Positions 20,752 through 55,374 of a stretch of 64,000 nucleotides of DNA are shown piece by piece. Each line of letters begins with the position of its first letter. Positions within the stretch are counted from its first letter, which is position 1. This stretch comes from Vicugna vicugna (Eukaryota): NCBI GenBank assembly GCA_013265495.1, contig MU057521.1, positions 1,562,335-1,626,334 on the forward strand, written 5' to 3'. The position numbers and the translations under genes were made by a program. The notes beneath the pieces were generated by a model. It had not been told where the DNA came from. It was given only the letters and a program-made list of their open reading frames with translations, and did no database searches.

Positions 20752-21980
20752 ATTTTTAATTGAGGCAAAGTTCACATAACATAAAATTAACCTTTTTAAA
20801 ATGAACAATTAGTGGCATTTAGTACATTTACAATGTTATGCAACCATCCCCTCTAGTTCTAAAACATTCCATACCCATTAAGAAGTCACCCCTGATTTCT
20901 GCCTCCTCCCAGCCCCCGGCAACCACTAGTCTGCTTTCTGATTTTATAATAGTGTATATTCCATATAAATGAACTCATAAGTGACCTCTTGTGCTTGGCT
21001 TCTTTCACTTGGCATAATGTTTTTGAGGTTCATCGACACTGTAGCATGTATCAGTACTCCATTCTTTTTTAAGGCTGAATAATATTTCATTATATGTATA
21101 CTCTCATTTATTTATCCATTCATCCATTGATGGAAATTTGTGTTGTTTCCACCTTTTGGCTGTTCTGAACAGTGCTGCTGTGAACATTTGGATACAGAAT
21201 TTGTTTTAAATTCTTTTAGATATATACCTAAGAGAAGAATTCCTGTATCCTATATTAATTATACGTTTAATTTATCAAGGAACCACCAAAACATTTTCTA
21301 TAGTAGTTGAGCCACTATACATTCCCACCAGCAATGGACAGGGTTCCACTTTCTCCACATCTTCATCAACACTAAAATTTCATTTTCAGTCAGTCTAGCT
21401 AAAGTTTTGTCAGTTTGTTGATCTTTTCAAAGAACCAAGTTTTGGTTTCATTGATTTGCTCTATGGTTTTCTTATTGTCTGTTTCAGTGATCTCTGCTCC
21501 AATCCTTTTATTTCCTTCCTTCTGCTGGCTTTGGGTTTGGTTTGCTCTTTTTTTTTTTTTTTCTAGTTCCTTAAGGTGAAAGGTTATTACTTCGAGATCT
21601 TCTTTTTTAATGTTGGCAATTGCAGCTATAAGTTTCCCTCTGAGTACTGCTTTCACTGCATCCCATAAGTATTGGTATGTTGTCTTTTTGCTTTCACTCA
21701 TCTTAAGGTGTGTTCTAATTTCATTTGTGATTTCTTTTTTGACCCCTTGCTTATTAAGAACATGCTGTTTAATTTCCATGTATTTGGGAATTTCCCAGTT
21801 TTTCTTTTGTTATTGCTTTCTAACAACATTCTGTTCTGGTCTGAGGAGATACTTCGTGTAGTTTCAGTCTTTTAAAGTGTATTGAGATTGTTTCTGTGGC
21901 CTAACATGTGGTCTGTCTTGGAAAATATTCCATGTGCACTGTGAAGAATGTGTATTCTGCTATTATTGGTGGAGTGTTCT
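20752..21980 (-). mobile_element. L1M 3' UTR (20752-~21375) joined to an ORF2 5' fragment (~21390-21980)
   Basis: Antisense 3'UTR motifs. ORF 21399..21779 translates to L1 ORF2p-like ...TTYQYLWDAVKAVLRGKLIA...INETKTWFFEKINKL. Confidence 0.88.
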
Positions 21981-32378: not shown

Positions 32379-33700
32379 CNNNNNNNNNNNNNTTTTTTTT
32401 TTTTTTTTTGGTATTTCCTCCTTGTCACAAATAACCAGTCTGTGTTGCTGATTCTTGCATTTTTCCAGTTTAGGCATGATCTGTCTTACCATCACCACCA
32501 CCACCACCACCACATGCTTGTACACTCTAGTCACACATCCTCCTGACCCCAAATACTTAAAGCACAATTTTGGTTCAATCAATTTTCAACAATTCTTTTG
32601 ACTTTGTACCTGCATTACTGCTGAGTAATGTATTTTTAAGACAATTTTCCTTTCTTCTAAAACTAAACTGTCTTGGTTTTTCATTCGCTTGATTGACTCA
32701 TTTAATTACATGAATTAAACCCCAAACTCTTCACTGGAAGAGTAAATATCTTCTGCTTGTGTTGGGAGCCACTGGGCATATTACCAGCTTCATCTTCTGA
32801 GGAGCCTTCTGACCTGCTCTGTCCCAGACCTTAGAGTCTCCCTTTACCATCAACCTTCTTCTCTCTTGAATTGGGGTCTGTGCTTTCTGGATCCCCTAAC
32901 TTCCTATTTATTGGCATATTTCTTCATTTCTCTGCAGCAAATTCTTCAGTCGGCTCCTGAGAAGAAAGTGACAGGTAAAGTTTGTGGGACTTTGCACATC
33001 TGAGAAGCATCTTTGTTCTTCCCTAACTCTTTTTAGTTCTCTTTCTTTAGTTCTTCCTTCCTTCCTCCTTTCTTCCTCCCTTCCTCTTTTCTTTGCTTTC
33101 CTCTCTTCTCCTTGCCTTTCCTTCTTACCCTAACTTATAATTAGCTGTTTGACCAAGTACTGAATTCTAAGTTGAGTCATTTCCTTTCAGAGATGTGAAG
33201 GTATCATTACTCCATTGTCTGCTATTTTGCTTCTGAGAAGTTGAAGCAATTCTAATTCCTCAGGCTTTTAATATAACTTGTCCCCGCTGTCCCTGGAAAA
33301 CTTCAGGTTTTTTCTTTGTTCTTAATGTTCTGAAGTTTCATGTAATGTGCTTTAATCTAGATCTTTTTTTAATTTACTGTGTTGGGTACTGAATGGGCCA
33401 TGGCAATTTAGAAACTTACATTCTTTAATTCTAGGAAAATGAAACTTTATGATTTCTATCTCCTACTACTTGGATATTAACCCTCTCAAATTTTCTTCAC
33501 TGTTTGTCTCCTATTTCCTCAACTTTTCCTCCAAATTTCCTATTGAGATCTTCATTTTTCTCTTTTAACTTCAGAAAGCTTGTTCTGTTTCTTCTTTATA
33601 TTCTCTTGTTCTTGTTTCACGCAGGCATTAATCTCTTTTCTGAAGACACCGAGGAGTTCTAAAAAGTTGCCTTTTTCAGCTTACTTCCACTGTGTTGTGA
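32210..33700 (-). mobile_element. Ancient LINE (L1ME/HAL1-like) remnants
   Basis: T-rich degenerate segments such as TTACTCCATTGTCT...CTTCTGAGAAG and TTCTGAAGTTTCATGTAATGTGC. Subfamily uncertain. Confidence 0.4.
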
Positions 33701-46210: not shown

Positions 46211-46784
46211 CGCCCCCGATTTCTCTGTCGCCCCCTCTCAGAGGCCCGCGTACGATCCTCCTGGGAAACTGTCCCCCGCCCCGCCCTCGTACGCACGCGT
46301 CACGTTTGTTTACCCTTAAGCCCCGCCTCGTCGCCGTCCTCCTGCTCTCTCCTCTCCTCCCTGGAATGCCGTCATGCGGGTGATGCATATTCATAAGGCC
46401 CCCGTGGAGCTCCCGCCCTGCCCGCCTCCTGTCTTCCCGCTCCGGGCGCTTGATTAATATTCAATGAGCCCTGCTTCGCGGCTGGCTCTCCGGGTAGAGG
46501 TTGGGGAGCGGGCGGNNNNNNNNNNNNNNNNNNNNNNNNNNNNNNNNNNNNNNNNNNNNNNNNNNNNNNNNNNNNNNNNNNNNGGGCGGGCGCGCGGGAT
46601 GGAACACCGAGACACCGACGGAATGCTCCGAATTGCCACATAATCCCCTGGAACGGCCGTGCCGAACGCCATTGCCTTCTCCCTTCTCCCCGCGCCGCCG
46701 CCGCCGTCTCCCACCTTCGCCTCCCCGCCTCGATCTCCGCCCCCAGCCTCCGGAGCTGGGGGGTAAGCGCGAAGCCCCACTGCA

Positions 46785-48211
46785 ATGGAGCCCGCCGCCG
46801 CGGCTACGGCGCAGCGACTCCCAGAGACCAGCAGGGAGGACCGAGCTTCTGCTCCCGCGGCGGCCGCCGCGGAGCCGGCGGCGGCGGCGGCGGCGGCTCT
46901 GCTCTGACCCGAACGGCGGCGCGCGGGAAGAGGCCCCCGGTGAGATAGCGCCGGGGCCGCTGCCGGGCCGAGCGGGAGGCACGGGTCGCAGGAGGCGGCG
47001 TGGCGCGCCCCAGCCCACCGCCAGCGGGGCTGCCCCGGTGCCCGGGGCCGGCGGCGGCGCCAACTCCCTGCTGCTAAGGAGAGGGCGGCTGAAGAGGAAT
47101 CTGTCCGCGGCCGGCGCCGCCGCCGCCTCGTCGTCCTCGTCCTCGTCGTCGTCGTCCGCGGCTGCCGCCTCGCACTCCCCCGGCGCCGCCGGCCTGTCCG
47201 CCTCTTGCTCGGCCTCGGCGTCCCTGTGCACCCGGAGTCTGGACAGGAAGACGCTGCTCCTGAAGCACCGGCAGATGCTGCAGCTGCAGCCGTCGGACCG
47301 AGACTGGGTGCGGCACCAGCTCCAGCGGGGCTGTGTGCACGTCTTCGACCGCCACTTGGCCTCGACCTACTTGCGCCCGGTGCTCTGCACGCTGGACACC
47401 ACGGCCGGCGAGGTGGCCGCCCGCCTGCTCCAGGTGGGCCACAAAGGCGGCGGCGTGGTGAAGGTGCTGGGTAAGGGGGCGCCCGGCGAGCCACGGGACT
47501 TGGGGCCACCGCCTGGGAGGAGCGGGCTGACCACCGTCGGGGATCCGCCGCACGCGCCTCCCGCTGACTTGCCGCTGCCCGGTGGCCCGGACAGGTGGGC
47601 GCGCCGTGCCAGCCCCGCGCCCTCGGACTCCAGCCCCAGCGAACCAGGAGCCCCGCGTGCCCTGGACGGCGCGGCCGCGGGCCCGGCCTCCGACACCGAG
47701 AGCTTCAGCCTGAGCCCCAGCGCTGAGAGTGTGTCCGACCGGCTGGACCCCTACAGCAGCGGCGGCGGCTCCTCGTCGTCGTCCGAGGAGCTCGAGGCCG
47801 ACTCAGCCCCTGCCTCGACAGGGGCTCCGAGCCAGCCCCGCCTGCCCGGCCGTTGCACGCAGCCCCGGCCCGGAGCGGGCTCTCGGCCGCCTTCCCCGAC
47901 GGCCTCCCCGCCAGCGCTGCAGCCGAAAGCCTCGAGAGGCGTCGACGGCCTGGGCGGTGCAGCCCGCGATCGGCCTCGGGAGGAGAAAACGTCGACCCCG
48001 GGGGGGAACGGGGCGACCACGGAGAAGACGCCTCCAACGCCCACCCTGTATGTGCAGCTCCACGGAGAGACCACCCGGCGCCTGGAGGCGGACGAGAAGC
48101 CATTGCAGATCCAAAATGACTACCTCTTCCAACTGGGATTTGGGGAGTTGTGGAGGGTGCAGGAGGAAGGCATGGACTCGGAGATCGGCTGTCTCATCCG
48201 CTTCTATGCAG
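46785..48211 (+). CDS. PHLPP1: PHLPP1 (PH domain leucine-rich repeat protein phosphatase 1 / SCOP) coding exon 1, apparently frameshifted near 46900-46912 in this assembly
   Basis: ATG at 46785 (GCAATGG) gives MEPAAAATAQRLPETSREDRASAPAAAAA. The downstream frame (ORF 46501..48249) gives AREEAPGE...GRRRRRGAPQP...NSLLLRRGRLKRNLS...SLDRKTLLLKHR...DWVRHQLQRGCVHVFDRH...SDTESFSLSPSAESVSDRLDPYSS...LYVQLHGETTRRLEADEKPLQIQNDYLFQLGFGELWRVQEEGMDSEIGCLIRFYAG, which I recognise as the PHLPP1 N-terminal extension and RA-like region. The exon ends at the phase-1 donor GCAG|GTAAGG (48211/48212). Confidence 0.96.
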
Positions 48212-51200
48212 GTAAGGAAACCACCTGCTCTTTGACGTGTGGGAAGTAAGCACTTTCAGGTGCCGAGAGTCAGTGCGGGTCCTTGGGAGTCTGTACTTCT
48301 TTACAGCTTTCACGTACAACTTGTATAATACTACATGGGGCAATTTTGAAATCCGGGAGCAATCTTGAGGACTCTGAGGTCGAGAGGTGGCAGAGCCACC
48401 GCGAAGTACAGAGAGCAGACCCTCCTGAGAGAGGCAGTAGTACATCTAACAATGAAGGTGCTTCCTTGGGGCCTCTGCCCGTGGGCTTGTCGGGTTTGAG
48501 GCAGTTTGGGATTTCAGGTGAACTATCTCTTGCACATGATACCTGCAGAGGGAGATGACTATGAGAAACTCTCTCCCTCCACTTGATTGTTTGCAGCTTG
48601 CCATTCTAGCCCCGGAGCTGGTTCCCCGTCAGCCGGTGCCCTCCAGCTTGCTGTCAGCTCCTTTGCCCCTTAGTCTTCAATAGAACCTAACAGATGAGAT
48701 CCTTTTCAGTGATACTTTTCTTCAGCGCTTTTTCAGTTTCCTCTGTAAGTTTGCTTCTTGCATCAAAAGTGGTTTTGGCTGTTTCTTTCCCTCATTTCTT
48801 ACTTTTAGCCTTTATAGCAAGAACTGACCATTGCGGTGTGACTTGCATTAGGAATATAGGGATCACAATACGACTTTAAGTGATTACTCTCTCTTGAAAT
48901 GGGATCTAAAATCCTCCTCATTATTTCTTTATTTCTAGATGAAAAGTCTTTAAATTTTTTTCTATTTATTGCAGCTTTATTGAGATATAAGTGATATATT
49001 AGATCGAATTCTTGACCAGGAGTGACTAATGTTTGTTCTTTTGGTTAAAGAGTTGGCTGGTACTTAATTAGAGAGCTCTAGATCCTGGTTATATTTGAGC
49101 TTAATAAGTTGTTTCGTATTCTTCCTCCTCTGGTTTGAAGAATCATGTTCTTAGTGATAAAGAATTTTGTTTAAAATAAAGTTAGCATAACAAAATTAAG
49201 TTAGGAGAGAGAAGTCTTTCCAAATTTACTATTCTAGGTTGTAGGTAGTGGTGGAAAAAATAATCACACTTGTGATTTCATTAATCTGTAGCCATTTTTT
49301 TCTAATTTAATATATTTTTGATCCAGTTTGTGTCCTAGCAGGAGTTTAGTAAATTTAAATAAAGAAATCTTAATTCCCACATTGAAATATGCAAGACTGA
49401 AATATGCATCTCTGGTGAGATGTTCCTTTGTGTTTAATTGAGGTGTTTCTCAGACGAGTGAATTTCTGATGGATTTTTGCCTCATAAAGAAAACCATATC
49501 ATAATATAGTAGCATTTGCAGTATCTGAAGATAATGTCCCAGTCTGACGACATGCCTTTAAAAGTTTATGGACTAGAAAATAGGTGATTTCTCTTTTCAT
49601 GTAGGAGTAACAACTATATCCTTTTTTCCTGTGGCTCATGTAATTTGTAAAATGCAGATGCATTAAATGGTAATCATACATGTAACGAGAATATTTTGTT
49701 AGTATGAGGATGATAAATATCCTTGTAACCAACTAGTTACATTGAAGGGAATATATATAAAGCGAGGGATATATTAAATAAGCAGTATTGGACGTATTTT
49801 GTGTGGAAAGAGCTCTGCATTCTTTCTTTTCCTCATGAATGAATTGTTGATCATGATACATGTCCATGCGGAGGAGGGTTTTAGGTGTTAGTCATGACAT
49901 TTAAATATTTGACTCACCTTGATTGTCTCTTCAAGTGTGTCTAAAATATTTTAAGTGGATGATTTTTTTTTTAACTTACCTCAATATAAAGGTAACAAAT
50001 TATCTGTCTGGTTAAATCTTACATTTCTGGTGTGCTCATTTTAATCTTTTTGTTCTTTATGAAAAGCAGTAATTGTCATAAATGCATATATACATCTGTG
50101 TTTATGCTCATAAAAAGAGCTAATAAAATGTGGAAGCCACCACACAGCATCCTGCCTATTCTTGAATGTGAAGCCAGTGTGCAGGTGTCCTAGAAGGAAG
50201 ATGCTTGATTGTTATAAACATGTCTCATTGCTTATTTTATACGAAGTTGAGCTTATTTTAAGCCTAAATTGATATACCAAACATCTCTGTGTTGATATTC
50301 ATTTGCCATAGAACAAAATTAAACATATAGTGAGTCCACTTGAACTTTTGCAAGGAAGTTTAGCTATTGATGAACAAAAGGGCCTAGTTATAAGGTGTTC
50401 TTAACTTATCATGGGAACATTGTCAGGACTTCACATGTAGCGGAGGTTTGCACCGAGCTGGAGGAGATTCCTGGAAATTACCCTTCTGCTGCAGTGGAAT
50501 GTAGGACACCCAACAGGGAAGCATCACATTTTGGTAGTAATTCTTTTCCTTAATAATAAGAGAATTAACATTTGTTTTAGATGAAACCCTCTAAGAGGAT
50601 GTTATGTATCACATTCATGTTTATAATTTTACAAATAAATTTATTGCTGCCTATGTTTTTGTTTATATGTGTAGTTGGAGTTAAGGCCTTTGAAGGCTTT
50701 TGAGTATTTACCTCTATTTAAATTGAGCTCATTACCTGCTATCTATCTAGCTTATCTAGTTTGTCAGCTGCTTTTTTTTTTTTTCTTCAGAAGTTCTTGT
50801 CCAGCAGAGAACTTCATTCTCCTAAAGGTCACCTTTCAATTAAATTTTAGTATTTATGACCAGCTCAAGTTATTCTTAAAAGGTTTTGAAAGCCATTTGT
50901 GGTTGCTTTGAATATTTAAATATTTATTTAGGAAAAGTAAAATGAAAGTCTTTAATGAGGTAGAAGGCATTGGACAAAAGGTACTATCTAATTACAGAGC
51001 TGTTGATGAAAACTTAGTTTGAAAATTGTTACTGCACCTCTCAAGTAACCATTCTCTTAGCTGATTTAAAATATGAAAAGAGTTAATCTGAAGTAACTTG
51101 TCTGAAGTGTTAAGTATTTTAGGTATATTAACATTTAATTTCCCTTTAAGAAAAGCCATCTTACATTTTATCTGAAAGAGAGTGATTTTAGGTTAAAAAA

Positions 51201-55034: not shown

Positions 55035-55374
55035 TTTTTTTTTTTTTTATGTAAAGATTTTTTTTTTTTACATTTTTATTGATTCATAATCATTTTACAG
55101 TGTTGTGTCAAATTCCAGTGTTCAGTACAATTTTTCAGTCATACATGGACATATAAACACTCATTGTCACATTTTTTTCTCTGTGATTTATCATAACATT
55201 TTGTGNNNNNNNNNNNNNNNNNNNNNNNNNNNNNNNNNNNNNNNNNNNNNNNNNNNNNNNTTTGTTTGTTTGTTTTTGTTTTTTAGATTCCACATATGAG
55301 CGATCTCATATGGTATTTTTCTTTCTCTTTCTGGCTTACTTCACTTAGAATGACATTCTCTAGGAGCATCCATG
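55035..55374 (-). mobile_element. Young camelid L1 3' end (spans an N gap) with perfect TSD, inserted into a MIR
   Basis: Poly(T), then ...GATTCCACATATGAGCGATCTCATATGGTATTTTTCTTTCTCTTTCTGGCTTACTTCACTTAGAATGACATTCTC. TSD TTGGACATTC at 55025-55034 and 55375-55384. MIR sequence resumes downstream (CCTCATCAGTAAAATG...TCTAAGATCTCTTTCAACTCT). Confidence 0.88.

Follow-up and report, generated by a model that had tools for sequence, protein, structure and literature searches.

The DNA analysed here very probably holds the normal, single PHLPP1 locus of a South American camelid, with the animal's gene intact. The frameshift and premature stop that appear near the start of exon 1 in the 64-kb stretch of DNA analysed here (the window) are most probably false, 47 bases having been dropped in assembly. 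This reading follows from the 47 nucleotides that are missing relative to an in-frame alpaca protein, from the near-identity of the sequence on either side of the break, and from the site itself, which is GC-rich, bordered by a repeat and next to an assembly gap. A mis-assembly in GC-rich sequence had already been proposed in the preliminary description of this DNA, with comparison to another camelid set beforehand as the test. That comparison yielded one record with an in-frame junction, the Vicugna pacos RefSeq protein XP_015095964.2, which supports the proposal. All positions below are window positions on the plus strand unless stated otherwise.

As written in the window, the start codon of the long PHLPP1 isoform lies at 46785-46787, where it corresponds to M1 of XP_015095964.2 and stands in a strong Kozak context (ACTGCA-ATG-G, with G at -3 and G at +4). 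Direct reading confirmed that 40 codons (MEPAAAATAQ...AAAALL) run from this ATG to a TGA at 46905-46907, as the preliminary description had it. This apparent 40-codon uORF (46785-46907) is made up of PHLPP1 residues 1-39, of which 38 are identical to those of XP_015095964.2, followed by an off-frame leucine and the stop. The AREEAPGE... sequence further on was likewise found in a different frame from the ATG, namely the +1 frame, which is free of stops from 46786 to the exon-1 donor at 48211/48212. An unbroken frame from the canonical ATG through the NLS to the RA domain, which we took as one of the marks of the long PHLPP1 isoform, is thus interrupted in the window and holds in XP_015095964.2. 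The first in-frame ATG 3' of the break, at 47275-47277, corresponds to M180 of the alpaca protein. It has a weak Kozak context (C at -3 and C at +4), lies 368 nt beyond the TGA in the window as written, and falls in a column where methionine is present in 84 of 104 matched chains.

Other possible starts were seen 5' of the canonical ATG. A CTG at 46756-46758, with a good Kozak context of G at both -3 and +4, belongs to the +1 frame, and from it the window as written can be read without a stop into the remainder of exon 1; this CTG would be relevant only to a real deletion. The 5' leader (46584-46784) holds two short ORFs that begin with ATG and span 14 and 6 codons; they are in the frame of ATG 46785, share a stop 5' of that ATG, and could be ordinary uORFs if the transcript begins that far 5'.

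The exon found its top match in alpaca PHLPP1 (XP_015095964.2, 1683 aa; E 3.7e-271), as expected of its orthologue, and non-alpaca mammals were at most 83% identical among the protein matches listed, which places the window's DNA in alpaca or a near relative. When XP_015095964.2 was searched against the 64-kb window by tblastn, one match was obtained, covering residues 58-493; the later PHLPP1 exons lie beyond the window, and the PH, LRR and PP2C-like domains were found in XP_015095964.2. The remaining exon-1 coding sequence (46909-48211) encodes residues 58-491 of the alpaca protein in the +1 frame without a stop, and is identical to it at 433 of 434 residues. Both basic halves of the bipartite NLS are intact at 46987-47097 (RRRRR from 46987 and RRGRLKR from 47077), matching the motif that PMC6692130 describes in the PHLPP1 N-terminal extension. 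The PHLPP RA domain (PF23010) is encoded at 48037-48207, being matched by residues 373-429 of the translation of 46921-48210 with an E value of 7e-15 and 55.5 bits against a Pfam cut-off of 27. The match to XP_015095964.2 ends at the exon-1 splice donor, GTAAGG (CAG/GTAAGG), at 48212-48217.

No sign of decay was seen in the exon, which runs for 434 codons without a further stop or frameshift and keeps its NLS, RA domain and donor; a repeat search of the sequence returned low-complexity GC repeats only. A retrocopy or a decayed duplicate was considered and is ruled out by the CpG island, the intact donor, the intron that follows and the lack of decay.

The ATG of the short form is also intact, at 48172-48174 in a strong Kozak context. 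It corresponds to the start of the human 1205-aa form (P0407; P-numbers are labels within our comparison set of 446 proteins, in which P0001 is alpaca XP_015095964.2), whose first methionine aligns with residue 479 of XP_015095964.2, and exon 1 ends at residue 491. The short form therefore begins inside exon 1, near its end, and cuts the RA domain (residues 434-490). PMC4649889, which gives the sizes of both PHLPP1 isoforms (long about 180-190 kDa, short about 140-150 kDa) and cautions about a non-specific band near 150 kDa, describes the short form as being without exon 1.

We compared the window with XP_015095964.2 across the break. The alpaca protein passes the junction in frame, from MEPAAA... 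through L39 and then AAAAGGGRSPEPALTPAAPNGGAREE. None of its first 150 residues is an X, and it carries no LOW QUALITY flag, a flag borne by P0006 and P0356 in the same listings; it may come from a sister species of the window's animal. The window agrees with it at 38 of 39 residues 5' of the break and 433 of 434 residues 3' of it, or 471 of 473 in total. From the ATG to AREE the window counts 136 nt, against the 183 expected from XP_015095964.2, and 47 nt of coding sequence are therefore missing in a break zone at 46899-46911, equivalent to about residues 40-57. As the long isoform of PHLPP1 (PHLPP1beta, or SCOP), the window's exon has the same start, NLS, RA domain and exon end as that of alpaca; it differs in these 47 nt and in two substitutions, A31P and A126G.

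Fitting the window to the codons allowed by XP_015095964.2, the best two-piece solution loses about 37 nt at 46899-46902 and about 10 nt at 46908-46911, with one mismatch in the Pro31 codon, while a single loss of 47 nt leaves three mismatches. However, a two-piece fit just as good came from 65 of 300 shuffled controls of residues 40-57, which undoes the two-piece form as proof of stitching. The preliminary description had recognised stitched pieces (AL / ALT / NG) with a net non-triplet deletion. The deletion is indeed non-triplet, at 47 nt, and the AL/ALT arrangement is the best fit, with the reservation that the shuffles match it; the NG piece is not a remnant at all but intact right flank, since XP_015095964.2 itself has PNGG at residues 58-61. 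The stretch of XP_015095964.2 across the right junction, residues 55-66, is found in 1 of the 446 compared proteins, the alpaca record alone, and so the spacer is camelid sequence rather than a copy from another species' model. Two N-terminal signatures of XP_015095964.2 were likewise each found in 1 of 446 proteins.

The two substitutions sit at similar places. At 46875-46877 the codon CCG encodes Pro in place of Ala31, at the 5' edge of a triplet run; we suspect a base error or a polymorphism. The Pro31 pattern was present in none of 118 chains, a weak marker given that most chains are without the preceding Glu. At 47113-47115 the codon GGC, a suspected base error, encodes Gly in place of Ala126 at the 5' edge of the triplet run 47115-47126, and Gly was found at this column in none of 114 orthologous chains. 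Each substitution thus lies at the 5' edge of one of the exon's only two triplet runs of at least four units. This is suggestive, and both are probably local consensus errors of the same kind as the 47-nt loss, although repeat edges mutate in life too.

The setting of the break is as GC-rich and repetitive as had been described. The CpG island of exon 1 has 74% GC and a CpG o/e of 0.94. A repeat scan placed a (CGG)7 run, encoding poly-Ala, at 46876-46896, immediately 5' of the break, where GC content reaches 81-82%. A gap of 68 N at 46516-46583, in the part of the CpG island that forms the promoter or 5' leader, is flanked by 200-nt stretches of 64.5% and 70.5% GC, and the break lies about 320 nt downstream of it, the distance noted previously. 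The window has three gaps in its 64 kb, of uneven length (13, 68 and 55 N), the other two being at a poly-T run (32380-32392, 13 N) and at a GTTT-type repeat (55206-55260, 55 N). Gaps at two T-rich simple repeats and one CpG island presumably point to a short-read scaffold. Elsewhere in the window, a Lys/Glu/Ile-rich open frame of 136 aa on the minus strand (21399-21809) resembles a LINE-1 ORF2 fragment and may be one.

In such a setting reads would run thin over the CpG island, and an assembler or gap filler may pass directly from one short word to a near-identical one and leave out what lies between, the spacer having two copies of the Ala-Leu codon pair. The poly-Ala/Gly spacer, GC-rich and close to the 5' end of the exon-1 coding sequence, would thereby lose 47 bases, and both the frameshift and the stop would be false. 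PMC9516821 describes an enrichment of false SNPs, indels and frameshifts in the GC-rich 5' parts of genes in older assemblies, and the window shows two features of that class: a 5'-proximal coding exon of high GC content with a gap nearby, and a sister- or same-species record in frame (one only). The likeness extends to individual cases reported there, such as zebra finch PCDH17, in which a first coding exon within a CpG island adjoins a gap and is in frame in another assembly. In contrast to the window, where 47 nt are missing relative to a separate record, the frameshifts of PMC9516821 are indels of less than 10 bp seen in pairs of assemblies from the same individual (zebra finch, hummingbird). 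We also sampled 165 words and looked for them in sequencing datasets. The best 14 non-RNA datasets (5 organisms, 7 studies) held 0.84-0.87 of them and none came near 1.0; only 99 of 1687 31-mers (5.9%) touch discordant sites, while 13-16% of words are missing, so that other losses are mixed in and these shares cannot place the 47-nt loss; the dataset with the largest share may be the source of the window itself.

Judged from the compared proteins, the lost spacer is widely conserved in mammals, its length varying among them. Of chains that start with MEPAA, 116 of 118 reach the DR[DE]WVR motif (all but P0043 and P0176) and 76 of 118 match a loose spacer pattern, a tally that includes isoforms and near-duplicates and is biased, since the models are in frame by construction and a species with a true frameshift would escape annotation with a MEPAA start. 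In ruminants (P0026-P0040 and P0424; for example P0028) the N-terminal extension is much shorter and rewritten yet keeps its frame, with the second NLS half starting near residue 60, as against about residues 95-116 in most other mammals; this lineage seems to have truly remodelled the region.

Donkey provides a closer parallel. The RefSeq protein P0158 (XP_014699250.3) has the usual spacer with the mammalian consensus, whereas the UniRef models P0160 and P0025 look off-frame there until RRRRR, where they come back to the usual sequence; P0158 and P0160, with 95% identity over their length, differ across the spacer. The gene and the spacer are the same as in the window, and here too one model looks off-frame. 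Unlike the window, which runs into a stop, P0160 returns to frame within one chain, and the donkey case is known from proteins alone, from which its cause is inferred. Odd or missing PHLPP1 N-termini were also seen in zebra, sand rat, one pig model and snub-nosed monkey (with donkey, P0009, P0021, P0023, P0025, P0043 and P0160), which suggests that PHLPP1 exon 1 is often mis-assembled or mis-annotated in public models. A second camelid PHLPP1 was not found among the best 120 of 280 matches, all 108 of 108, or the best 120 of 314, nor among the listed members (up to 15 each) of 25 clusters. None of the papers listed by loose two-term searches of open-access literature mentions PHLPP1, whether in connection with camelids or with a uORF, a frameshift or gene loss, which does not imply that none has been published.

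If the DNA is instead correct, the deletion could be a private allele of the sequenced animal, probably heterozygous and taken as the consensus haplotype, that was generated in the poly-Ala spacer through slippage or microhomology-mediated joining. We regard this as improbable. The break does adjoin a triplet run and repeated Ala-Leu codons, and poly-Ala runs are real mutation hotspots as well. The absence of decay from the exon is also consistent with a young allele and, PHLPP1 knockout mice being viable according to PMC13358185, fitness would be no bar to a null allele. However, for a private allele the deletion would have to coincide with two private substitutions, each bordering a triplet run, and all of this close to an assembly gap; none of the 114 orthologous chains has the Gly, and the only camelid protein found is intact. 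Such an allele would yield a 40-aa peptide from the canonical ATG, and any remaining product would come from re-initiation at ATG 47275, without the NLS halves, or from ATG 48172 as the short form.

Less probable still, and in our view very unlikely, is a change fixed in one camelid species, by which the long-isoform start became a regulatory uORF and translation of PHLPP1 moved to an ATG further 3' or to an in-frame CTG further 5'. The preliminary description had raised such a conversion of the start into a uORF, and the comparison does not support it. The window as written does resemble the regulatory uORFs of mammalian mRNAs in its strong-context ATG and in the distance from its stop to the next in-frame ATG, and the +1 frame, without a stop between the gap and the donor, contains both CTG 46756, in good context, and Met 47275. 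Yet the supposed uORF is the gene's own conserved N-terminus rather than an element distinct from the main coding start, it is read in frame in the alpaca record, and its arrangement occurs in none of the 446 proteins; the context of ATG 47275 is weak, and an open GC-rich frame is to be expected by chance because the region has long open frames on both strands. Ruminants (P0028, P0424) truly shortened the same region and did so in frame, but alpaca has an intact protein, from which the window departs at no more than 2 of the 473 residues compared. The change in the window is not shared with XP_015095964.2, and the exon sequence shows none of the decay that would go with a lineage-specific loss. 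Least probable of all, to the point that we give it hardly any weight, is a rescue of the frame in the RNA or on the ribosome, with the DNA correct and a non-canonical mini-intron or programmed frameshift at work. In its favour, the main frame stays open before as well as after the break. There is, however, no GT in 46785-46907, the earliest being at 46940, and the rejection of a GT-AG mini-intron in the preliminary description therefore holds. A GC-AG intron that restores the frame is not credible either, because its best donor matches 5 of 9 positions of the donor consensus and its best acceptor candidate is poor, with 65% pyrimidine and 4 T in 20 nt. Moreover, removing sequence cannot supply the approximately 16 residues that are found in XP_015095964.2.

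According to PMC6692130 the N-terminal extension carries the NLS and binds STAT1, and catalysis-dependent effects on STAT1 are reported there as well. The description of PHLPP1 as an Akt/PKC phosphatase follows the older literature and is disputed in a 2026 review (PMC13358185), where PHLPP1 and PHLPP2 are argued to be pseudophosphatases; with catalytic activity in doubt, the non-catalytic parts of the protein gain in interest. It is unlikely that this animal, or its species, truly lacks the 47 nt and has in them a natural New World camelid allele that silences only long PHLPP1. If it did, the start would open a 40-codon uORF and the NLS-bearing, STAT1-binding extension would be lost while the short-form ATG at 48172 was kept. 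This isoform-specific natural knockout would offer a natural test of the role of the N-terminal extension, although the result would still be a modest one given the viable knockout mice of PMC13358185.

Under the assembly-error reading that we prefer, ATG 46785 would give rise in the cell to the usual long PHLPP1 of about 1683 aa. The artefact is then a warning: a loss-of-gene screen run on the window's assembly would miscall PHLPP1, whose exon 1 is a spot of assembly and gene-model faults, here and apparently also in one donkey model.
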